NCBI RefSeq assembly: GCF_045277075.1
Contig: NZ_CP104270.1
Location: 1,524,631-1,588,630, forward strand
DNA from: Seonamhaeicola sp. MEBiC01930
GTDB lineage: Bacteria; Bacteroidota; Bacteroidia; Flavobacteriales; Flavobacteriaceae
Direction: 5' to 3'
Length of the DNA: 64,000 bases
The notes beneath the pieces are model-generated. The model did no database searches and was not told where the DNA came from. It worked only from the letters and a program-made list of their open reading frames with translations. Shown here in pieces: positions 258 to 41,241 of the stretch (the first letter of the stretch is position 1; the number at the start of each line of letters is the position of its first letter). The translations under genes were made by a program, and so were the position numbers.

Positions 258-579
258 ATTATTAGGGTGTTTCTCTTTAAGGGTTGAGCTTTCAGCGGTC
301 GCTCCTTCCTGGGTCAGGGAGCTTCAACAAATGCCTCAAACCTTAGTACACACTTGTTTTAGAAAATTTTAACAAGTGTAATTTTTATAATCCTTAGGCC
401 TCTTTGGTGTGATAATTGCTATATTTCTTCAGTTAAAACTAAATTTTGAATTCAATAATTCACAAAATTTAGCTTTACTTCAGTAATCACTTTGTTAGTC
501 CATAATAATTTTTTTCATTTGAGGGTTTTGAATATTCAAATGAAAAAATTCATGTACTTTTAATGCAACAAAATCTTAA

Positions 580-17031: not shown

Positions 17032-17203
17032 ATCTTTAAAATTTAATTTTGTGCATTAATAAAGTGCAAAGTTAATTAAAAACATGGCAATATTTATTAT
17101 GGCATTCCCTTATAATTCTTATAGTATTATAAGGTCAGGCTATCACTATTCGCTACCCAATTTTGGGTGAGCTCAAACATACCGCTCTATCCTTAATGCC
17201 AAC

Positions 17204-17575
17204 TTAATTTGGCTGTAAAGTAAATTCCATAACTTCTGGTATAACATGGCATTCATCTGCGCTTACCTCAATTGGGTCACTCACATAAGTTTGATAATTA
17301 GATGAGGTAACAGTAATAACATACATACCAGCGCGTTCACCAGCTCCATAAAAGGAATCTATACCTAAGGTTAGGGTTTCCTCGTAAGCACCATCAGTAA
17401 CCACAACAGTAACATCATCTGTAATTTTATTGAAATTGGAAGCATCAATTAAGGTGATGTTTAGTCCATATACGTATTCTAAGGTGCAAACAATACCATT
17501 CATATCGTCATCAGATTTACATCCTGTAAGGTTTAAAGCAAGTACAAAAAGTACAATAATATATTTGGGTTTCAT
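17204..17575 (-). CDS. hypothetical lipoprotein
   Basis: lipobox LTGCKSDD; no recognised domain. Confidence 0.45.
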   Translation of the reverse strand: MKPKYIIVLFVLALNLTGCKSDDDMNGIVCTLEYVYGLNITLIDASNFNKITDDVTVVVTDGAYEETLTLGIDSFYGAGERAGMYVITVTSSNYQTYVSDPIEVSADECHVIPEVMEFTLQPN

Positions 17576-31226: not shown

Positions 31227-31395
31227 AGGGTTTCAAAGGTAGGGAATTGAGGAATTTTAAAATACCATTTAATTTTGATATTTAATAAGCTGTTAGCAAG
31301 TGCACACGCGTAAGCGATTGTAGCGGCATCCTTTTGCTTTTTTGTAAAGGATATAGCGAAACATTTCTGTTCATGAATTCATTAATTTGAAATAG

Positions 31396-31427
31396 AAAAT
31401 CATGAATAAAAGCGCGACCCCGCCAAA
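31396..31427 (-). terminator. rho-independent terminator for the SPFH gene (stem ACCCCGC, loop, stem GCGGGGT, then T-run on minus)
   Basis: 7-bp GC stem followed by TTTTATT on the minus strand. Confidence 0.6.
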
Positions 31428-31450
31428 AGCGGGGTTACGCCCTAAAACAC

Positions 31451-32551
31451 CTATTTACTCACAGAGAAAATATCTTTTAATTGTGTTACAATACCACCAT
31501 TACCAGAAACGGTAATCTCACCAATTTTGTCGGCAATTTTTTCAACATATTCCATCTCTTTTAGTTTGTACAGCATGTCATTCTCTTCCATCAACTTTGC
31601 CGTATTTAACAAACTACGGGTAGAAGCTGTTTCTTCACGTCTTGTAATAATGTTGGCTTGTGCACGTTTTTGAGCTACTAATACTTGGTTCATAATCTCT
31701 TTCATGTCTCCAGTTAAGATGACGTCTCTAATACCGCAGTTCAATACGCTTACACCTAATTTTTCTGCAGCTGTTTTAACATTTTCAAACACCGCTTCTG
31801 CAATGTTGTCTTTACGTTCTAACAACTCATCTAAAGTGTAAGCGCCAACGTAGGCACGTAACACCAATTGCATTGCAATGTATAATTGCTTTTCGTAGTC
31901 TTTGTTTTCTAATAAAGCTTTTTCAATATCGGTAACTTTGTACTGAGTGTAAAAGTTGATACGGATAGCCGCTTTATCTTTAGTTAACAATTCCTGACCC
32001 GCAATTTCTAATTGTAACTGACGCAAATCAGCCTTTGCAATTTTAATTGAGGTGTCGTTTCGCCAGAATCTGTAAATACCACCCGTTAAGGTTTTAGCAT
32101 AAACATCATCTACTAAAAGCACCGCTTTTTCGTAAGCAGCAACCTCAAAGGTTCTAATATACTTGCTTAATTCATAGTTGCTGAACAAAGCCTTGTCTAG
32201 CTTTTCAGTAATATAAATTTTGCTTAAGTCTAATCGTGTAAATTCACGCTCAATTAAGCCCTTCCAGTACACGTAACGTCCGGCAGTTAAAATGGTTTTA
32301 AAGTTTCCTTTTTCGTAAACTAAAACCAATTCGCTGTCCTTTACTTCAATTACGTCTAACATTGCCGCAAGCGTTTCGTCTTTTAGTAAGATTTCTAACG
32401 CTATAGGGGCTGTAAAGGCATTCTCTAAGCTATAAATAAGCGCACGTTGCTTAAAACCTAACCAATGTTTTCCTTCTGTAATTACTTTTAGGTAATCACC
32501 TTTTTTGAAAACTAAACCTACTTTTCCTGCATTAATTCTTACTCGTTTCAT
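31451..32551 (-). CDS. SPFH/band-7 (stomatin/flotillin-like) family protein
   Basis: PHB-domain similarity; coiled-coil C-terminus. Confidence 0.7.
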   Translation of the reverse strand: MKRVRINAGKVGLVFKKGDYLKVITEGKHWLGFKQRALIYSLENAFTAPIALEILLKDETLAAMLDVIEVKDSELVLVYEKGNFKTILTAGRYVYWKGLIEREFTRLDLSKIYITEKLDKALFSNYELSKYIRTFEVAAYEKAVLLVDDVYAKTLTGGIYRFWRNDTSIKIAKADLRQLQLEIAGQELLTKDKAAIRINFYTQYKVTDIEKALLENKDYEKQLYIAMQLVLRAYVGAYTLDELLERKDNIAEAVFENVKTAAEKLGVSVLNCGIRDVILTGDMKEIMNQVLVAQKRAQANIITRREETASTRSLLNTAKLMEENDMLYKLKEMEYVEKIADKIGEITVSGNGGIVTQLKDIFSVSK

Positions 32552-32671
32552 TTTTACATTTTTTAAAATTAAACATTCGCTTTTGCCCTTTTAAAGGCGG
32601 TGGCAATTCCTGTAACGGAGGGTTTACCAACTTCAATTCTCAATACGAGTACACTGAGTTTTAAAGTATAT

Positions 32672-32770
32672 TTTTGGGCGTTACCCACAAGGGGTCGGGC
32701 TTTCCGTACATAGTTTTGGTTCGATGCACGCCTCACCAAAAGCTAACCACTTCAATCCCTAACGCGATAA
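32672..32770 (-). repeat. conserved non-coding element copy A in the 5' leader of the SPFH gene; second copy at 36422-36576
   Basis: shared blocks GGGCGTTACC(C)ACAAGGG(G)TCGGGCTTTCC and CTAACCAYTTCAATMCCTAACGC in both copies. Confidence 0.55.
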
Positions 32771-33080
32771 TTCGTCTTAAAAACAGCAGATTAAAAATCA
32801 TCTGTCCAGTACGGAGATACTCATATTAATAACCATTAATAAATAGTGTTATGTGTTGGGTCATAAAAAGGACGTATCAAATCAATTAATACTTGGTTTC
32901 TAATTCTGAACACAAAACAGTAGTTATAGCTAACTATTAAAAATCAGTATGTCTAAGTACTTTCAAGATTGCTTTGGCTTTGGGAGCACCAATGCTGATT
33001 CATAATCTCACTGTTTTTGCCATTTTTATTAAGTAGTGTGACAGACTACTGTTATCAGTTTTACAAGATGATAAGCTTCA

Positions 33081-33125
33081 ACCTACATTATGAGTGTAGT
33101 GCTCTACCCACTGAGCTACGAGGCC
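33081..33125 (-). pseudogene. 5' half (positions 1-44) of a tRNA-Met(CAT) gene, lying immediately 3' of its own 3' fragment (circularly permuted order)
   Basis: minus-strand sequence GGCCTCGTAGCTCAGTGGGTAGAGCACTACACTCATAATGTAGG: acceptor, D arm and anticodon arm are perfect, then the sequence diverges. Confidence 0.55.
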
Positions 33126-33130
33126 TAAAA

Positions 33131-33163
33131 TGGTGGCCTCGACAGGATTCGAACCTGTGACCT
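33131..33163 (-). pseudogene. 3' fragment of a tRNA (variable loop, T arm, acceptor 3' strand, encoded CCA) whose acceptor strand exactly complements the tRNA-Met 5' half 5 nt downstream
   Basis: minus-strand sequence AGGTCACAGGTTCGAATCCTGTCGAGGCCACCA; no matching 5' half lies upstream. Confidence 0.55.
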
Positions 33164-33330
33164 AAATGAGACATTTTTACAGAATGTCAACTGTTCGCTA
33201 GAACCCTAATCTAGTGCGTCTGCCATTTCCGCCATATCCCCCGTTTGGGAAATAGTGGGACTCGAACCCACACGAATTGGTGGATTTTTTTGGATGAAAT
33301 CCTAACCTTCAAGTCTAGTTGAATATAAAA
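33164..33330 (-). other. tRNA-like fragments. A Leu-like 5' part (GGGGATATGGCGGAAATGGCAGACGC plus anticodon-like hairpin CTAGA-TTAGGGT-TCTAG) lies downstream of a T-arm/acceptor fragment (GTGGGTTCGAGTCCCACTATTTCC) whose acceptor strand pairs with it. This is a second permuted arrangement
   Basis: D-arm similarity to type-II tRNA-Leu; acceptor GGGGATA pairs with TATTTCC through two G-U wobbles. Confidence 0.35.
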
Positions 33331-33450
33331 CCGCAATACTTTCATGCAACGATTTATACAATAGTGCTATACCGAAACACTCAACAAGACCAGCTTGATG
33401 CTGTTTCCTGCGTAAGCAGGAATATCATTCATTCAATGAACTTAATATTG

Positions 33451-33523
33451 CGGAACAGACAGGAATCGAACCTATATCTATGCATTTTCAGTGCAGCGCA
33501 TTGACCAACTTTGCTACTGTTCC
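33451..33523 (-). tRNA. tRNA-Phe (GAA); D stem is weak
   Basis: acceptor GGAACAG/CTGTTCC; anticodon loop CTGAAAA; T arm GGTTCGATTCC. Confidence 0.6.
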
Positions 33524-33529
33524 TTTTTG

Positions 33530-33599
33530 AGCATCCATCAAGATTCGAACTTGATCTTAGAGGATATACCTCTTGTGCGAGCCATTACACTATAGATGC
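33530..33599 (-). tRNA. tRNA-like gene with an aberrant anticodon arm (5-bp stem AGAGG/CCTCT with a 5-nt loop TATAT); possible pseudogene
   Basis: good acceptor GCATCTA/TGGATGC, D arm and T arm (TCAAGTTCGAATCTTGA); no 7-nt anticodon loop. Confidence 0.35.
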
Positions 33600-33633
33600 T
33601 CCATACCAATTATCAACCATTAATTGGTGTTTT

Positions 33634-33706
33634 GGGTGACTTCGGGATTCGAACCATGTTCTTCTCATCCACAATGAGACGTTTTACCAATTAAACTAAA
33701 GACACC
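33634..33706 (-). tRNA. tRNA-His (GTG)-like with G-1; T stem and acceptor each carry mismatches, so possibly a pseudogene
   Basis: anticodon arm TCTCA-TTGTGGA-TGAGA; D arm with U8, A14, G18, G19; T stem CATGG/CCCGA does not pair. Confidence 0.4.
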
Positions 33707-33710
33707 ATTT

Positions 33711-33783
33711 TGGATAACCTGAAAGGATTTGAACCTTTACCTCAAGAGTCAAATTCTTGAATGCTGCCATTACACCACAGGTT
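33711..33783 (-). tRNA. tRNA-Gln (TTG), CCA encoded
   Basis: acceptor TAACCTG/CAGGTTA; anticodon loop ATTTGAC; T arm AAAGGTTCAAATCCTTT. Confidence 0.8.
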
Positions 33784-33790
33784 ATTTTTG

Positions 33791-33863
33791 TAAGCTTAAT
33801 AGGATTCGAACCCATACTTCAAGGTTCGTAGCCTTGAGTGCTATCCAATTACACCATAAGCTT
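33791..33863 (-). tRNA. tRNA-Arg (ACG)
   Basis: acceptor AAGCTTA/TAAGCTT; anticodon loop CTACGAA; canonical D and T arms. Confidence 0.8.
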
Positions 33864-33868
33864 ATTTG

Positions 33869-33942
33869 TACTCTACCCAAGATTCGAACTTGGACTGAAC
33901 GGAGTTTAAGACCGATGCCTCTTCCAGTTGGGCTAGTAGAGC
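33869..33942 (-). tRNA. degenerate tRNA-like gene with good acceptor and T arm but disrupted D and anticodon stems; likely a pseudogene
   Basis: T arm CCAAGTTCGAATCTTGG; acceptor GCTCTAC/GTAGAGT; anticodon region TCGGTCTTAAACTCCGT forms only 3 bp. Confidence 0.3.
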
Positions 33943-33947
33943 TTAAG

Positions 33948-34021
33948 TACAGGAAGAGAGATTCGAACTCCCAGTTTCTCGAGTCTAAGTCGAGCGCGTT
34001 TTCCCATTTCGCCATTCCTGC
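33948..34021 (-). tRNA. tRNA-Leu(TAG)-like: Leu-type D arm and TAG anticodon, discriminator A73, but the long variable arm is missing, giving a 74-nt type-I architecture
   Basis: D arm TGGCGAAATGGGAAAACGCG resembles tRNA-Leu; anticodon arm CTCGA-CTTAGAC-TCGAG; variable region only AAACT. Confidence 0.4.
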
Positions 34022-34026
34022 GTTTG

Positions 34027-34099
34027 TTGAGGTATTAGGAGTTGAACCCAAATCACCCGAGTTAAAAGCTCGGTGCTTTAACAATTAAGCTATACCTCA
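34027..34099 (-). tRNA. tRNA-Lys (TTT)
   Basis: anticodon arm CCGAG-CTTTTAA-CTCGG; T arm TTGGGTTCAACTCCTAA. Confidence 0.8.
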
Positions 34100-34105
34100 A
34101 TTTTG

Positions 34106-34177
34106 TACTCCGTAGGGGAATTGAACCCCTAATTCCACATAGAAAGTGTGGCGTCTTAACCATTTGACCAACGGAGC
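34106..34177 (-). tRNA. tRNA-Glu (TTC)
   Basis: anticodon arm CCACA-CTTTCTA-TGTGG; T arm AGGGGTTCAATTCCCCT. Confidence 0.8.
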
Positions 34178-34183
34178 AAATAT

Positions 34184-34200
34184 TTCGTCTGAGAAGTAGG
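34184..34200 (-). repeat. 17-nt direct repeat of the tRNA-Pro 3' end (TTCGTCTGAGAAGTAGG versus ...GCAGG), about 70 nt downstream of tRNA-Pro
   Basis: 16 of 17 nt identical to 34266-34282. Confidence 0.5.
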
Positions 34201-34269
34201 AATAACTTCGTTTTTCCTGCAATGTCTCAACTCGAACCAAATTCAAGTAAACTTGATTTGATTACTTCG

Positions 34270-34341
34270 TCTGAGAAGCAGGATTCGAACCTGCGACCTC
34301 CCGTGCCCAAGACGGGTAAACAACCACCGTTATCTTCCCAG
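34270..34341 (-). tRNA. tRNA-Pro (TGG)
   Basis: anticodon arm CCCGT-CTTGGGC-ACGGG; T arm GCAGGTTCGAATCCTGC. Confidence 0.75.
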
Positions 34342-34347
34342 ATTTTG

Positions 34348-34435
34348 CGGAGAGCAAAGGAATTGAACCTTCATTACCAAAACGGTAAACTCACTTAGCA
34401 GGTGAGCGCAACAAACCAATATTTGCCTACTCTCC
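34348..34435 (-). tRNA. tRNA-Ser (GCT), type II with long variable arm
   Basis: anticodon arm CTCAC-CTGCTAA-GTGAG; variable hairpin TACC-GTTTT-GGTA; T arm AAGGTTCAATTCCTT. Confidence 0.8.
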
Positions 34436-34441
34436 GGTTTG

Positions 34442-34513
34442 CGGTTCATACGAGAATCGAACTCGTTTCTCCCGAGAGACAATCGGGAAGGATAGCCATT
34501 ACCCCAATGAACC
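34442..34513 (-). tRNA. tRNA-Asp (GTC)
   Basis: anticodon arm CCCGA-TTGTCTC-TCGGG; acceptor GGTTCAT/ATGAACC. Confidence 0.8.
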
Positions 34514-34519
34514 AATTTG

Positions 34520-34591
34520 TATATCTACTAAGATTTGAACTTAGACTTAGAGTTTAGAAGACTCTCGTGCTATCCATTACACCATAGATAT
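34520..34591 (-). tRNA. tRNA-Arg (TCT)
   Basis: perfect cloverleaf; anticodon arm AGAGT-CTTCTAA-ACTCT. Confidence 0.85.
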
Positions 34592-34597
34592 GTGATG

Positions 34598-34680
34598 TGG
34601 GAATTGAAGGATTCGAACCTCCTAAGTTTAAAACAACTGTTTTACAGACAGTCCCAGCTCTCCAACGCTGACGAATTCCC
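34598..34680 (-). tRNA. tRNA-Tyr (GTA), type II
   Basis: anticodon arm ACTGT-CTGTAAA-ACAGT; 13-nt variable arm; acceptor GGGAATT/AATTCCC. Confidence 0.8.
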
Positions 34681-34697: not shown

Positions 34698-35231
34698 CTA
34701 CTTCGCCGATTTTTTAGCTTTCTTGCTTTTCTTTTTCTTCTTCTTTTTAGGTTTTATTTTTTTCTTAACACGGCTCAATTCGTTTTCTACATAGTTAATG
34801 ATGCAGTTATCAGTTGCTAGCTTAATTGATGTTTTGTAAACTTTTACAGCTGCTTTAAATTGACCTTGCTCTTCTAATAAAACCGCTTTGTAATAGTGTA
34901 AAATAGATTTGTTTACACCTTTTATAGTCAAAGCAAATGTTATCAGCTTTTCGGCTTCATCATAGTCTTCATTCCATAGTAATGTTTGAATGTAGAATGG
35001 ATAAGTTTTTGGCATTTCCATCTCATGAGCCACCGCTTCTGCATAATATTGTTTAGCTGTTTCGTAATCTTTTAATTGTTCAGCATAAACACGTCCCATT
35101 AAGCATAAGGCTTGAGCATCTTTACTGTTATATGATAAAGCGTAGTTCAATGCTTCCAAGGTTTCTTCTAACTCATATGGATAAGCATCTAAAGCTTTAA
35201 ACAAATAGTTGTTATGTAAATTATTTTCCAT
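34698..35231 (-). CDS. TPR-repeat protein with a poly-lysine C-terminal tail (KKKIKPKKKKKKKSKKAKKSAK)
   Basis: TPR-like repeats YAEQLKDYETAKQYYAEA...; tail encoded by an A/T homopolymer-rich tract. Confidence 0.65.
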   Translation of the reverse strand: MENNLHNNYLFKALDAYPYELEETLEALNYALSYNSKDAQALCLMGRVYAEQLKDYETAKQYYAEAVAHEMEMPKTYPFYIQTLLWNEDYDEAEKLITFALTIKGVNKSILHYYKAVLLEEQGQFKAAVKVYKTSIKLATDNCIINYVENELSRVKKKIKPKKKKKKKSKKAKKSAK

Positions 35232-35384
35232 TGTTTTAAATTTTAAGGCATTAGTTTTTAACCCATGTTAGGGTTAACATGCCTTGTTTTTTAAATAGTC
35301 TATAGAGACCTGTTTTAAATGCACACTAAAAAGTGGCTATTAAAACCGATTCAGACCGGTATTCTTAAATTTTAGGAATAAAAA

Positions 35385-35413
35385 AATCCGAAACAGTTTA
35401 CTTGCTTCGGATT
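35385..35413 (-). terminator. orphan rho-independent terminator (stem AATCCGAA, loop, stem TTCGGATT, then T-run on minus) inside a 690-bp gene-free region
   Basis: 8-bp stem followed by T7 on the minus strand; no annotated gene upstream within 400 bp. Confidence 0.45.
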
Positions 35414-35553
35414 CTTTTCTGGAAAATATACCTACTTAAAGCAGATGCGCAGAAAATACCGAAGCCTTGTGAGTGATTCAAAATCACTATACCTATTCCA
35501 AAAGGGTATACTATGTTGTAACATGACTTCTTTTTTTTATTAATATTTGTTTG

Positions 35554-35579
35554 TCAAACTGAGCGCAGTCGAAGTGTTC
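35554..35579 (+). repeat. short dispersed repeat GTCAAACTGAGCGCAGTCGAAGTGTT; related inverted copy inside the 42608-42687 element
   Basis: 26 of 28 nt identical to the reverse complement of 42660-42687. Confidence 0.5.
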
Positions 35580-35861
35580 TCCAAAATGCATATCAGAATA
35601 ACTATTATTTTTTTGTTGCAGTAGTTTGTTTAAAACTGCGATGCAAAGATTAGAACTATTTTTTAAATAACAAAACTTTTTTAAATATAATTACTTGATA
35701 ATCAAATAGTTAAATTGAAATTTAGATAATAGAATTCCTGTCCGCTTTTTAGCAGATACTTGAGGTTTTTGGCAAAAGTTTGTCTCCCAGTTGCTTATAC
35801 TTCAAAGGCCTATATTTTAGTTTTTAAAATCTTTATTCAATTAATTCTAAATTTTTTTCAA

Positions 35862-35895
35862 AAAAAAACGTCCAACACAAGTTGGACGTTTTAAA
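35862..35895 (-). terminator. rho-independent terminator for the TerB gene (stem ACGTCCAAC, loop ACAA, stem GTTGGACGT, then T9 on minus)
   Basis: 9-bp stem plus T-run. Confidence 0.65.
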
Positions 35896-35917
35896 TATGA
35901 TAGTTTTAAACTATTTC

Positions 35918-36349
35918 TTATCTATTCATATTCTTTATTTGGTCCACAAAATGATCTAAATCTGCTCCTTGACTAACTAAAGTAGTAGCTTTATCAATTA
36001 TGTATTTCACGTTTACTGCGTGAAAACCAAGTCCAACTGCAATTTTCTTCAACAATAACATTTCAGGTTCACCTTCAATATTATCAACATACACCATTCT
36101 TATTAAATCAAATAAACGCTCTAAACGTCTATCATAAGACACTGGCGGATTTATAGGGTGCGAATTATAATCTTTTAAAATAGCTTTATAATCTGCTTCA
36201 TTAATAGACAAATTATTTGCTAACCTATCTAAAAACGCTTTTTCTTCATCAGTAATTATGCCATCTGCCATAGCAACTCTAACTATTGACGCAAAATGAC
36301 TTTCATTACGTTTTTTAAATCCACTATCAAATAAATCTGAAATCGACAT
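35918..36349 (-). CDS. TerB-like (tellurite-resistance TerB fold) domain protein
   Basis: TerB-like helical repeats; acidic loop. Confidence 0.6.
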   Translation of the reverse strand: MSISDLFDSGFKKRNESHFASIVRVAMADGIITDEEKAFLDRLANNLSINEADYKAILKDYNSHPINPPVSYDRRLERLFDLIRMVYVDNIEGEPEMLLLKKIAVGLGFHAVNVKYIIDKATTLVSQGADLDHFVDQIKNMNR

Positions 36350-36421
36350 ATATTATTGTTTTTATCGTGCTGCAAACGTACATATTATTTTTAAGATTTT
36401 AAACCCAAATTTCAATTTTTT

Positions 36422-36576
36422 GGGCGTTACCACAAGGGTCGGGCTTTCCTCATTTTTTTTTATTTTATAAGTATTTGTGAATATGAAAATATTTCACTAC
36501 TCAATCCCTCATTCGTTGGGGATTTGAAACATGAAACCTGTGGTGAGCGCTGTCTAACCATTCAATACCTAACGCA
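36422..36576 (-). repeat. conserved non-coding element copy B in the 5' leader of the TerB gene; carries an AT-rich insertion relative to copy A
   Basis: see the 32672-32770 entry; compensatory C/G insertion in hairpin ACC(C)-ACAA-GGG(G)T. Confidence 0.55.
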
Positions 36577-36839
36577 GGGAATATTTGTTGTTTGTTTTTT
36601 TTAATTTAAGATTGTTCCGGTCTTTGGAGAAGTTCGTTTAACGGACTTGTGTATGAAACGTAGCGTGTAAAAAGACACTAACTTTTCGGGTTAACACAGA
36701 GCCGAATTTTTATATTTTGTTTTTAATTTTTCTCTTTTTAAAAGCCAAATTAAAAATTTGGCGGACTTTCTAAATATACACAAACCTTTCGGTGAAGCAC
36801 TTATTAGCTATGTTTTATACACCGTGTTGTAAAACGTTT

Positions 36840-37313
36840 TTATTCCGTTGTTATATTCACTTTTGTTCCGTCAGGTAAATCTTTAATCTGTTTTTGAATT
36901 TGACCACTTAATTCAAAATGAACTTCTATGTCAGTTAATTCAAAATTTTCAGGCTCATATTCTCCTCCTAAAACTGGCAATTTTTTATATCCATAAAGAT
37001 GTTTGTCAGTTAGCTCAAGTCCACTTTCTTTTAATTTTTTTATTAATCCAATCAAAAACCATTCATCGACTTGTTCATTATCGTTTAATTTAGTTTTAAA
37101 TTCATCAATACTATTAGCGACTATTTCAAGGATTCCTTCTCCAACATTTAGCCAATAACAAACTCCATTATTATCTACAAGAAATAAATCACCAATACTC
37201 GACATTAAAATCGGTTTTTTATCAGTTCCAATTAACCAATTCCAACTTTCAGTCAGTCGGCTTTGGTCGATATGATTAAAATCTACTTTTAAATCGTCCC
37301 AAGTAATTTTCAT
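36840..37313 (-). CDS. hypothetical cytoplasmic protein (157 aa), possibly an immunity-protein-like fold
   Basis: ORF; start overlaps the upstream gene stop by 1 nt. Confidence 0.45.
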   Translation of the reverse strand: MKITWDDLKVDFNHIDQSRLTESWNWLIGTDKKPILMSSIGDLFLVDNNGVCYWLNVGEGILEIVANSIDEFKTKLNDNEQVDEWFLIGLIKKLKESGLELTDKHLYGYKKLPVLGGEYEPENFELTDIEVHFELSGQIQKQIKDLPDGTKVNITTE

Positions 37314-37693
37314 TATTCGTATTGATTTAGTTCATATAATATATGATTTTTCATATCCACAGCAGAAACGTGAATAGTATTAAAATCTGAATTCGGAAAT
37401 CCAGCTAATTCTATGTTTTCCTTCTCCAAATCAGTTAACCAGTCCATAAATTCGTGAATGTCATATTCAACAATTTTATAGTTTTTCCAATCGTCAATTA
37501 GGAATAATTCTGCAAATTCTTTTTCAGGCCAAACAGGAATAACACTTAAATCATTTGAACCTATCATAACATATTTGTCTTCGTTATCTGCAATCAGATA
37601 AATTGTTTCAAAATCGGCTACTTTTCTCAGGAGGTAACCATACCTTTCTTTTGAGTTAAGAGCAAAAATGTTATTTATTTTCTGGTGGTTCAT
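37313..37693 (-). CDS. hypothetical protein (126 aa), DUF2750-like
   Basis: motif ERYGYLLRKVADFETIYLI...IPVWP, recalled from memory as DUF2750-like. Confidence 0.45.
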   Translation of the reverse strand: MNHQKINNIFALNSKERYGYLLRKVADFETIYLIADNEDKYVMIGSNDLSVIPVWPEKEFAELFLIDDWKNYKIVEYDIHEFMDWLTDLEKENIELAGFPNSDFNTIHVSAVDMKNHILYELNQYE

Positions 37694-37896: not shown

Positions 37897-40800
37897 GTGA
37901 GTACTTCCAATCTCTCGCAGTCTTATGTACAGACTTTGCAAACGCAAAATCTGCGGTCTGCTATTGCCCATCCTCAAGCAAAAACACATTTAAAAGGATT
38001 AGTAGGATCCGCATTTTCATATGTGATTTCTAGTGTTTTTAAAGCTTCAGAAAAGCCTTTTTTATTAATATTTAATGACAAAGAAGAGGCAGCACATTAT
38101 CTAAACGATTTAGAACAAATCATAAATGATAAAGATGTGTTATTCTATCCGGGTAGTTACCGCAGACCTTATCAAATTGAGGAAACCGATAATGCCAATG
38201 TGCTGTTACGAGCAGAAGTTTTAAATAGAATAAATTCTCGAAAAAAACCAGCCATCATTGTTACCTATCCAGATGCCCTTTTTGAGAAGGTTGTAACTAG
38301 AAGGGAACTAGAGCGCAACACATTAAAAGTGTCTGTTGGCGATAATCTGTCCATAGATTTTGTAAACGAAGTTTTGTTTGAATACCAATTTAAGAGGGTT
38401 GATTTTGTAACAGAACCAGGGGAGTTTTCAGTACGTGGTGGCATTGTAGATGTGTTTTCATTTTCTCATGACGAACCTTACCGTATAGAGTTTTTTGGTG
38501 ATGAGGTAGATAGTATCAGGACTTTTGATGTGGAGTCTCAGCTTTCGGTAAACCAGATTAAAAAAATCAATGTCATACCTAATGTTGCAAATAAATTTCT
38601 TGAAGAAAGTAGACAGAGTTTCTTAAAATATATTGCACAAAAAACAGTAGTATGTTTAAAGAATGCCGATTTATGCTTTTCCAGAATAGACGATTTCTTC
38701 AATAAAGCAGAAACCGCTTTTAAAGAACTGTCTTCTGAATTAAAACATGACGCACCAGAAGAGTTGTTTAGTAATTCAGAATTGCTTAAAAAGCAATTAT
38801 TGGAATTCTCGCTAGTGGAATTTGGAACTCAAAATGTTTTTAAAAATAAAGAGTCACAAATAATAGAATATAACACTACACCACAACCATCTTTCAATAA
38901 ACAATTCAATTTATTGATAGAAGATTTAAATTCTAATCATAATAAAGGCTATATCAATTACATTGCCTGTGTTAGCGAACAGCAAGCCAAACGTTTTCAT
39001 GACATTTTTGATGATGTTGATGAGGAAGTAATCTATAAAACCATTGTGCAATCTTTGCACCAAGGGTTTGTAGACCATGACAATAAAATAGTTTGTTATA
39101 CAGACCATCAAATTTTTGAACGTTACCATAAATTCAATATTAAAAATGGTTATGCCAAAAAGCAAGCCATCACTTTAAAAGAACTTACCAATTTAGATGT
39201 TGGGGATTATGTTACCCATATAGATCATGGAATTGGTCGTTTTGGAGGTCTGCAAAAAATAGATGTTGAAGGTAAGAAACAAGAAGCTATTAAATTGATT
39301 TATGGGGAGCGAGATATTTTGTATTTAAGTATTCATTCGCTTCATAAAATAACCAAGTATAATGGTAAGGATGGTAGACCTCCAAAAATCTATAAACTTG
39401 GTAGTTCTGCTTGGAAAACCTTAAAGCAAAAAACCAAGGCCCGCGTTAAGCATATTGCTTTTAATTTAATTAAACTTTATGCCAAACGGAAAACTAAAAA
39501 AGGCTATCAATACAACCCAGATAGTTACATGCAACATGAGCTGGAGGCCTCATTTATTTATGAGGATACACCAGACCAAAGTACAGCTACGGCCGATATT
39601 AAGGCCGATATGGAAAGCGAACGCCCAATGGACCGCTTGGTTTGTGGAGATGTAGGTTTTGGAAAAACCGAGGTTGCCATAAGAGCGGCTTTTAAAGCTG
39701 TAGATAATGGAAAACAGGTAGCTGTATTGGTTCCTACAACCATATTAGCATACCAACATGCTAGGACTTTTAGAAAGCGACTTCAAGATTTTCCAGTGGT
39801 TGTAGATTACCTTAACCGTTTTAGAACAGCAAAAGAAAAACGTTTAACCTTAGAAGCCCTAGAGCAAGGAAAAGTAGATATCATAATTGGAACACATCAA
39901 CTTGTAAATAAAAATGTAAAGTTTAAAGATTTAGGACTTTTAATTGTTGATGAGGAGCAAAAGTTTGGGGTTGCCGTAAAGGAAAAACTAAAGACCATTA
40001 AAGAGAATGTTGATGTTTTAACCTTAACTGCAACACCTATACCGCGTACACTTCAATTTAGTTTAATGGCTGCCAGAGATTTATCTGTTATTACAACTCC
40101 ACCGCCAAATAGATACCCCATAGAAAGCCATGTTATTAGGTTTAACGAAGAATCTATCCGAGATGCGGTAAGTTATGAAATTCAACGAGGTGGACAGGTG
40201 TTTTTTATTCATAATAGAATTGAAAATATTAAAGAAGTTGCTGGCTTAGTACAAAGGTTGGTCCCTGATGCAAAAGTAGCCATAGGTCATGGGCAAATGG
40301 AAGGTAAAAAGTTAGAACAGCTCATGCTTTCATTTATAAACGGTGAGTTTGACGTATTAGTAAGTACCACAATTGTTGAAAGTGGTTTAGATGTACCTAA
40401 TGCTAATACTATTTTTATCAATAACGCCAATAATTTTGGCTTAAGTGATTTACATCAAATGAGGGGGCGCGTTGGTAGAAGTAATAAAAAGGCCTTTTGT
40501 TATTTCATTACACCAGAGTATTCTGCAATGACAGATGATGCACGAAAGAGAATTTCGGCATTAGAACAGTTTACAGAGTTAGGTAGCGGGTTTAATATAG
40601 CCATGAAAGATTTAGAAATTAGGGGCGCAGGAGATTTGCTTGGAGGAGAACAAAGTGGATTTATAAATGAAATAGGGTTTGATACATACCAGAAAATATT
40701 AAATGAAGCTATTGAAGAGCTTAAAGAAAATGAGTTTAAAGATTTATATAATGAATCAGATGAGGACAAAGTTTATGTAAAGGATGTTACTATTGATTCT

Positions 40801-41241
40801 GATTTTGAGTTGCTTTTTCCAGATAGTTATGTGAATAATATTGCAGAAAGATTGAGTCTTTACACCAAGCTTAATGAATTAAAAACTGAGGAAGAATTAC
40901 TTCAATTTGAAAAAGAGCTAATAGATAGATTTGGTGAATTACCAGAACAAGTGACCGATTTGTTAAACAGTGTCCAAATAAAGTGGATTGCCACTAAAAT
41001 AGGTTTTGAAAAAATCATAATGAAACAAGGAAGGTTTATTGGGTATTTTATCAGTGATCAGCAAAGTAGTTTTTATCAAAGTGGGGTGTTTACCAAGGTA
41101 TTGGGTTATGTACAATCAAACTCCAATTTGTGTAAAATGAAAGAGAAACAAACTCGACAAGGTTTACGATTATTACTTACTTTTGAAAACGTAAATTCAG
41201 TTGAAAAAGCTTTAACATTATTAAAACCTATTGTGGCTTAA
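37897..41241 (+). CDS. mfd: transcription-repair coupling factor Mfd
   Basis: UvrB-homology N-terminus; RNAP-interaction domain; DEAD/DExH helicase motifs GDVGFGKTEVA and DEEQ; TRG motif. Confidence 0.95.
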   Translation: MSTSNLSQSYVQTLQTQNLRSAIAHPQAKTHLKGLVGSAFSYVISSVFKASEKPFLLIFNDKEEAAHYLNDLEQIINDKDVLFYPGSYRRPYQIEETDNANVLLRAEVLNRINSRKKPAIIVTYPDALFEKVVTRRELERNTLKVSVGDNLSIDFVNEVLFEYQFKRVDFVTEPGEFSVRGGIVDVFSFSHDEPYRIEFFGDEVDSIRTFDVESQLSVNQIKKINVIPNVANKFLEESRQSFLKYIAQKTVVCLKNADLCFSRIDDFFNKAETAFKELSSELKHDAPEELFSNSELLKKQLLEFSLVEFGTQNVFKNKESQIIEYNTTPQPSFNKQFNLLIEDLNSNHNKGYINYIACVSEQQAKRFHDIFDDVDEEVIYKTIVQSLHQGFVDHDNKIVCYTDHQIFERYHKFNIKNGYAKKQAITLKELTNLDVGDYVTHIDHGIGRFGGLQKIDVEGKKQEAIKLIYGERDILYLSIHSLHKITKYNGKDGRPPKIYKLGSSAWKTLKQKTKARVKHIAFNLIKLYAKRKTKKGYQYNPDSYMQHELEASFIYEDTPDQSTATADIKADMESERPMDRLVCGDVGFGKTEVAIRAAFKAVDNGKQVAVLVPTTILAYQHARTFRKRLQDFPVVVDYLNRFRTAKEKRLTLEALEQGKVDIIIGTHQLVNKNVKFKDLGLLIVDEEQKFGVAVKEKLKTIKENVDVLTLTATPIPRTLQFSLMAARDLSVITTPPPNRYPIESHVIRFNEESIRDAVSYEIQRGGQVFFIHNRIENIKEVAGLVQRLVPDAKVAIGHGQMEGKKLEQLMLSFINGEFDVLVSTTIVESGLDVPNANTIFINNANNFGLSDLHQMRGRVGRSNKKAFCYFITPEYSAMTDDARKRISALEQFTELGSGFNIAMKDLEIRGAGDLLGGEQSGFINEIGFDTYQKILNEAIEELKENEFKDLYNESDEDKVYVKDVTIDSDFELLFPDSYVNNIAERLSLYTKLNELKTEEELLQFEKELIDRFGELPEQVTDLLNSVQIKWIATKIGFEKIIMKQGRFIGYFISDQQSSFYQSGVFTKVLGYVQSNSNLCKMKEKQTRQGLRLLLTFENVNSVEKALTLLKPIVA

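Follow-up and report, generated by a model that had tools for sequence, protein, structure and literature searches.

The 64-kb stretch of DNA analysed here (the window) carries two minus-strand genes, one coding for an SPFH/Band_7 protein (slipin; 31451..32551) and the other for a TerB-like protein (35918..36349), each preceded by the same short block. The question raised by this locus is whether the block is a cis-regulatory leader shared by two stress genes, as had been proposed from the letters alone (the sequence-only reading), or an element of another kind. The gene names given by that reading are clear for SPFH (Pfam PF01145, E = 5e-28), whereas the TerB match is only partial (Pfam PF05099, residues 22-57, E = 3e-8). 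The SPFH protein is 91% identical to the slipin of Seonamhaeicola marinus, and an exact-protein look-up had neither the SPFH nor the TerB protein of the window on record. Both blocks were found where they had been placed, the first as TTTTGGGCGTTACCCACAAGGGGTCGGGCTTTCC ... CTAACCACTTCAATCCCTAACGC at 32672-32765 (copy A) and the second as TTTTTTGGGCGTTACCACAAGGGTCGGGCTTTCC ... CTAACCATTCAATACCTAACGC at 36417-36575 (copy B), with a left block GGGCGTTACC(C)ACAAGGG(G)TCGGGCTTTCC and a right block CTAACCA(C)TTCAAT(C/A)CCTAACGC in common. This match is far beyond chance: the 11-mer TCGGGCTTTCC has two sites in the window, those of copies A and B, where 0.35 would be expected, and a covariance model of related elements (R1) recovers copy A with E = 1e-22 and copy B with E = 5.5e-8. 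The element is GC-rich (0.48, against 0.25-0.32 in the adjoining intergenic DNA), as had been remarked. The hairpin is indeed one base pair shorter in copy B (ACC-CTTGT-GGT, against ACCC-CTTGT-GGGT in copy A, minus strand); because of this difference in hairpin length one combined left-half pattern did not match both copies, and the long and short variants both recur in other genomes (L079, L102). The longer middle of copy B is also real, with about 66 nt of extra sequence (111 against 45 in the model) rather than the 60 or so first estimated. It holds a second, degenerate left (5') half, GAGGGATTGAGTAG, so that copy B is a composite or rearranged copy.

Blocks A and B are copies of Flavo-1 (RF01705), a known folded multi-copy intergenic repeat of Bacteroidota, mostly of Flavobacteriia, so that the finding is mostly an ordinary one, a known repeat and not a new riboswitch. 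Few of the families that Rfam files as small RNAs are more abundant than Flavo-1, to which, to our knowledge, no function has been assigned since 2010. The Rfam model, which has 76 positions, matches copy A on the minus strand over positions 1-76 (core at 32689-32770) with 37.7 bits (E = 1.4e-5 in a 4.7-kb search), below the curated gathering cut-off of 42 bits, and gave only noise and no match on copy B. However, eight of ten sister elements with the architecture of copy A exceed the cut-off (43-65 bits). Since RF01705 detects these relatives, copy A is a diverged, sub-threshold member of the family, and the sequence-only reading, which had suggested Flavo-1 without being able to confirm it, was right on this point. 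With respect to the RNA sense of the element, the left block is the 3' part and the right block the 5' part. Copy A has both invariant internal-loop sequences, GAUUGAAG and CGGAAAGC, exactly, while the loops of copy B read AUUGAA-UGG and GGAAAGCCCGA. The elements of the window share with published Flavo-1 (Weinberg et al. 2010, PMC2864571) these two loops, the covarying P1-P4 hairpin with a tip of variable length, the taxonomic range (Bacteroidota and some spirochaetes), and the many copies per genome with no gene association. The same authors rated Flavo-1 as a likely RNA that is not cis-regulatory (Weinberg et al. 2010, PMC2864571), and Rfam files it as Gene; sRNA.

A scan for the two invariant core strings alone, with one genome per species, returned at least 120 loci, nearly all in Bacteroidota, with a few in Treponema and about nine chance matches among the matches listed. 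Two forms can be told apart. Class I, which makes up about 70% of sampled elements (about 77 among the matches listed), reads 5'-GCGUKARG, core, CCCGA, a variable hairpin, NAACGCCC and AAA, and the copies of the window are of this type. Class II (about 34 among the matches listed) is without the hairpin, and its flanks, YUAGCCCC before the core and GGGA-AANAGCUCC after it, are those of the Rfam consensus. With RF01705, class I elements reach 43-65 bits, against 47-82 bits for class II. About ten of the at least 120 loci listed belong to Foetidibacter luteolus (L020, L035, L040, L041, L073, L083, L099, L108, L113 and L120); these copies have longer 5' flanks in common and 3' hairpins that are nearly identical, a pattern suggestive of a recent burst or of a larger composite repeat unit.

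A structural alignment of 67 class I elements from other genomes supports five helices, with 94.5% paired cells against 33-51% when the partners are slid, a covariation score of 0.464 against at most 0.115 in controls, and two-sided changes in 249 cells (0 of 500 shuffles as high). The conserved structure, the closing helix GCGTTA/TAACGC and the small internal hairpin that had been predicted are therefore all real, both helices covarying across the 67 elements. Pairs of the closing helix include CG 52 / GC 12 / UA 3 and UA 37 / GC 24 / AU 4, and whole-helix variants such as GGGUGA/CACCCC, GUGCAA/UGCAC and GCAUUA/AAUGC were observed; the 3' hairpin (CG 43 / GC 13 / UA 5 / AU 1) and P1 (GC 49 / AU 12 / CG 3) covary as well, and among the covarying stems the GAUAGAAG/CGGAUAGC subfamily has a U-A pair swapped to A-U. 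The rows of this alignment were picked by a perfect 5-mer complement, which is a selection bias on the closing helix; nevertheless about 73 of the roughly 77 class-I-like matches listed, which were picked on the core alone, have at the expected place a closing helix of 5 bp or more without mismatch, so that this bias is small. On the minus strand the element is thus organised as a closing helix of 5-6 bp (GCGUUA/UAACGC), a long imperfect hairpin whose base has two invariant purine-rich internal loops (GAUUGAAG opposite CGGAAAGC), a short 3' hairpin of variable sequence and a CCCAAA tail, together forming a three-way junction. The published Flavo-1 consensus structure ends at P1 and has neither the closing helix nor the 3' hairpin; these, with the tail, are absent from the Rfam model, and the published flanks (UAGCC ... 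AGCUCC) are those of the other form, without hairpin. The three-way-junction extension is therefore a new addition to the published motif, and the larger architecture missing from that model is the one found in most sampled copies. In copy A (32670..32771, minus strand) the covariation-supported closing helix pairs 32678-32683 with 32760-32765, and the 3' hairpin lies at 32683-32695. The minimum-energy fold of copy A gives the same architecture, whereas its stability is not significant with respect to shuffled sequences (z = -0.16), and the structural case rests on covariation and not on energy.

When the window was searched with R1 (the class I covariance model) with filters off, five copies were found, one intact and four interrupted or degenerate; three of them had escaped the sequence-only reading, which listed two. 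Copy A is the intact, extended one (85.6 bits, E = 1e-22). Copy B (36416..36581, minus strand; 34.9 bits) is composite and degenerate, keeping both ends and the 3' hairpin around its 111-nt centre. Copy C (31302..31448, 38.7 bits, E = 4e-9) lies on the opposite (plus) strand with its end 2 nt from the SPFH stop codon. Its conserved loop CGGAAAGC is split by a 47-nt AT-rich insertion, and RF01705 matches it only in part (29.5 bits, 31319-31361). Copy D (17094..17205, minus strand; 33.7 bits, E = 1e-7) is degenerate, belongs to the GAUAGAAG/CGGAUAGC-like subfamily and has a GCAUU/AAUGC closing helix. A relic at 259..357 (minus strand) with a GTGT.../...ACAC closing helix and CTGAAAGCTCAA is a probable fifth copy of marginal score (12.7 bits, E = 0.14). 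Decay has thus reached most local copies, B, C and D being interrupted or degenerate.

The contexts of these five copies are varied and on both strands, and the same holds beyond the window. Among 113 elements from about 100 genomes, the start-facing genes are on the same strand in 48 cases and on the opposite strand in 44, and the end-facing genes in 46 and 50 cases, so that orientation relative to the neighbouring genes is random. The 91 start-facing neighbours fall into 129 Pfam families with two members at most in each, neither Band_7 nor TerB being among them. The likewise absent preference for gene or strand was reported for Flavo-1 in F. psychrophilum (PMC9723704). The element is also abundant: 12 further, unseeded copies were found in 732 kb of seeded loci from other genomes, and 96 of the 239 rows of the published alignment come from a single 2.86-Mb F. 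psychrophilum genome and 35 from F. johnsoniae. Riboswitch-like and other cis-regulatory leaders have a conserved sense fold upstream of a gene, as does the element at SPFH in several genera, whereas Flavo-1 has no consistent gene class, orientation or position, and most orthologues are without it. The idea of a leader common to the two genes is therefore not supported and most likely wrong.

The TerB locus points in the same direction. The gene lies downstream of copy B in a Flavobacteriaceae chromosome, close to Mfd (37897-41241), and in the one orthologous locus examined, that of S. marinus (L121), the Mfd-TerB spacer measures 145 bp and is without the element. With respect to S. marinus, the window gained about 1.45 kb between Mfd and TerB, an insertion (36416-37693) made of a DUF2750 gene (37313-37693), a Tdi1-like immunity gene (36840-37313) and copy B. 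At its two junctions the insertion has AT-rich strings that resemble each other, AAATTTGTTTCA and AAATTTGGGTTTAA, perhaps by chance. Between copy B and the TerB start codon lies a promoter-like box, TACGTTTG (36373..36380, minus strand), kept in S. marinus as TAGGTTTG within conserved TerB-proximal sequence and having the form TA(C/G)GTTTG. The Bacteroidetes -7 promoter consensus is TAnnTTTG, and the box is by this resemblance a putative TerB promoter. Since it is conserved and downstream of copy B, the latter is probably outside the TerB transcript. One Flavo-1 subfamily itself carries TATGTTTG, which fits the same consensus, in copy D (17094-17205, minus strand) and in L144 and L148, about 182 nt upstream of SPFH; in L148 a TTG 17 nt upstream of TATGTTTG is supplied by the T-rich flank. 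Some copies of Flavo-1 might in this way create promoters. On the other side of the TerB-like gene, a 690-nt AT-rich non-coding stretch (35232-35917) separates it from a TPR gene, and at its edge lies a weak match to the Bacteroidetes sRNA FopS (35221-35293, plus strand; 27 bits against a cut-off of 56).

We consider that Flavo-1 is probably a REP- or MITE-like dispersed intergenic repeat of roughly 100 nt whose neighbouring genes are incidental. The small mobile repeat that the sequence-only reading had offered as its second choice is thus the better one, although mobility itself is deduced from the distribution and not demonstrated: neither a transposase nor long terminal inverted repeats were found, and around 72 elements there is no direct repeat that could be a target-site duplication, only a Y-rich 5' flank and a CC(A/T)AA tail. 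The terminal inverted repeat (the closing helix) measures only 5-8 bp, whereas MITEs have target-site duplications and terminal inverted repeats of at least about 10-15 bp. Viral contigs gave only seven matches, plasmids gave no match to copy A, and nothing specific was found in the literature on REP or MITE versions of Flavo-1 in Bacteroidetes. Under this explanation selection on the fold would come from its recognition, as a folded single strand, by a trans-acting factor that probably reads the invariant loops during copying or maintenance. Only foldable copies would then be propagated or maintained, and individual copies would afterwards be free to decay. The position beside SPFH and TerB would be a by-product of insertion into AT-rich spacers and not a sign of shared regulation, and any effect on a neighbouring gene, for example through a stable stem-loop in a read-through transcript, would be local and incidental.

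REP/REPIN sequences are high-copy intergenic palindromes of Proteobacteria, GTAG/CGTC-tagged and mobilised by RAYT transposases, which are Y1 transposases. Flavo-1 resembles them by its high copy number, intergenic position, palindromic and covarying stems, lack of a gene-specific role, subfamilies within a genome and decaying copies. However, it has no visible GTAG or CGTC tag and no associated transposase gene was identified; its length of about 100 nt, its asymmetric conserved loops and its three-way junction set it apart from a REP, which is a simple 20-40-nt palindrome or a doublet of one. The Correia elements of Neisseria, the pneumococcal BOX and bcr1 of Bacillus cereus are closer in size, being dispersed folded repeats of about 100-150 nt, present or absent between relatives as Flavo-1 is, some copies having promoter-like sequence (as with TATGTTTG in copy D and L144/L148). 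Flavo-1 differs from these by its terminal inverted repeat of only 5-8 bp and by the absence of a detected target-site duplication, and we know of no parent insertion sequence.

The level at which the fold is selected was approached through wobble pairs. Across 73 class I elements, the 1533 cells of the consensus pairs contain 7 G-U pairs and 18 A-C mismatches. The folds of minimum energy have a G-U fraction of 5.6% for the sense (annotated) strand and 8.0% for the antisense, the same measure giving 11.6% and 4% for the tRNAs of the window. Selection at the RNA level on the annotated strand is not shown by these results, which agree with a fold kept as DNA, or on the two strands alike; G-U pairs being nearly absent, unlike in the tRNAs, DNA would be indicated no less than RNA. 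In 84 of the 113 elements the sense strand has the better fold of the two, by about 2 kcal/mol, a difference attributed to the purine-rich loops of that strand; together with the asymmetry of the conserved loops it is compatible with a strand-specific RNA. Taken with the lack of strand or gene preference, the avoidance of G-U speaks against a regulatory RNA and for a repeat on which selection acts either as folded DNA or as a mobile unit, and pipelines that annotate Flavo-1 copies as sRNA genes or leaders are probably misleading.

It is possible, though less likely, that Flavo-1 represents, in Bacteroidota, a new sort of mobile element that is non-autonomous and is copied while folded as a single strand, and not a small RNA. 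An enzyme would recognise the three-way junction with its invariant purine-rich loops, the stems made of Watson-Crick pairs only would reflect selection at the DNA level, and repeated insertion would occur at preferred AT-rich sites, for example just upstream of the SPFH leader. A bias of orientation with respect to GC skew is typical of single-strand-DNA transposons; no significant bias relative to local GC skew, used as a proxy for replication direction, was observed (t = 1.7).

The SPFH locus is where a local role has to be weighed. The gene is flanked by inverted Flavo-1 copies, copy A upstream in sense and copy C downstream in antisense; a metagenomic relative (L154) likewise has an antisense copy at 1065-1166, right behind the SPFH stop codon, and the gene order directly downstream of SPFH varies among relatives. 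Between copy A and the start codon, outside Flavo-1, lies a structured leader of the gene's own (32552..32669, minus strand). This leader of about 115 nt is kept in at least 12 orthologous loci, whether these carry Flavo-1 or not, and its helices (ACUUY/UUGAAG; a variable hairpin with the loop (G)AACUCGU; GGYAA/UURCC enclosing CCNUCCGUUACAGG) covary and are rich in G-U pairs (for example AU 7 / GU 5 at one pair). It has no match in Rfam at E up to 10. The conserved leader of SPFH is this block and not Flavo-1, and it is a candidate for an undescribed cis-regulatory RNA. An ECF-type promoter seen in it (AACTT-N16-CGT) was down-weighted because the same bases form covarying, G-U-containing RNA helices; no canonical promoter box for SPFH was found.

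Just upstream of this leader, Flavo-1 is present in 8 of about 31 related loci, always in sense and never in antisense: the window, L121 (with a large insert), L122 (cut by a contig end), L123 (70.5 bits), L184, L144, L148 and L150. Flaviramulus sp. BrNp1-15 (CP092099) carries an intact element at the equivalent position. The other loci, about 23, are empty and retain the leader, filled sites (the window, L123) and empty ones (L124, L125, L126) occurring side by side among relatives. The presence of the element is patchy on the SPFH tree, and there are at least two junction types, that of the window group and that of L144/L148, whose variable stems share nothing. A full-sensitivity search of 14 SPFH loci (96 kb) found only two copies, both upstream of SPFH. 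The association exceeds the background density and could mean a local function, but the site could also be a preferred target, or the insertion an old one since lost many times. It is the one support that the leader idea keeps, and this recurrent copy offers a concrete locus for testing a local effect.

That copy A lies in the 5' UTR of SPFH and acts in cis on it, the TerB copy being a decayed relative, is nevertheless unlikely. It could be a structured module upstream of the SPFH leader, or could shield the gene from the upstream tRNA/sRNA transcript. The sense orientation in all eight filled loci and the place of the sole two copies in 96 kb agree with such a role. So does the fact that the outer helix of the leader, ACUUY/UUGAAG, begins a few bases past the element, so that transcription would have to start at or upstream of the 3' end of the element. 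Several structured 5' regions also overlap Flavo-1 matches (Guerin et al., PMC9723704). However, about three quarters of the orthologous loci lack the element and yet keep the leader, the variable parts are wholly different between lineages with two junction types, and there is no orientation or gene preference in the family as a whole. Copy B lacks conservation and has a conserved promoter-like box downstream of it, and G-U pairs are scarce in the element, unlike in the adjacent SPFH leader.

Slightly less probable still are stem-loops that serve the host in 3' regions, as E. coli REP sequences do, stabilising the upstream mRNA or aiding termination in either orientation. In both orientations the median distance from an element is shorter to gene ends (33-72 nt) than to gene starts (101-178 nt), copy C and the copy of L154 follow SPFH stop codons closely, and stems made of Watson-Crick pairs only fold on both strands. 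Against this, spacers at gene ends are short anyway, so that the proximity may be passive, and a plain stem-loop needs no invariant asymmetric loops. The stability of copy A is unremarkable (z = -0.16), and, unlike the GC-rich hairpin of an intrinsic terminator, the structure is followed by an A-rich flank and no U-run on either strand.

It is improbable that Flavo-1 copies are genes for trans-acting small RNAs, as Rfam files them, with promoters of their own and many expressed paralogues: the Rfam class, the rating of Weinberg et al. 2010, the conserved fold, the asymmetric loops and the better folding of the sense strand speak for such RNAs, whereas no conserved promoter or terminator flanks the element, whose tail is A-rich on both strands, there is no G-U excess on the annotated strand, most copies of the window are disrupted, and in the transcriptome of F. 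psychrophilum matches are sense or antisense to transcribed regions and many are untranscribed (PMC9723704). Integron attC sites, invertible-promoter repeats and self-cleaving ribozymes were rejected as comparisons because the order of the conserved GTT/AAC triplets, the repeat length and the core sequences seem not to fit.

Some further features lie upstream of copy A. A conserved non-coding block at 32772-32900 (minus strand), common to L123 and L124, ends in a terminator-like hairpin (32780-32805, CAGATgatttttaATCTGctgttttt) and could correspond to a small RNA or to the 3' end of a tRNA-array transcript. The tight array of 14 tRNA genes (33450-34680, minus strand) lies between the TPR gene and SPFH; two of its 'Leu' tRNAs measure 75 nt and lack a long variable arm, and one Tyr tRNA has the anticodon AUA. 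Relatives differ in the array at this locus: Hanstruepera marina has 12 tRNAs, Flaviramulus sp. has 3 and Seonamhaeicola marinus has none. Beside the array, a sub-threshold match to YrlA (Y RNA-like; 33073-33185, minus strand; 36.7 bits against a cut-off of 69) overlaps a weak tRNA-like match at 33073-33125.
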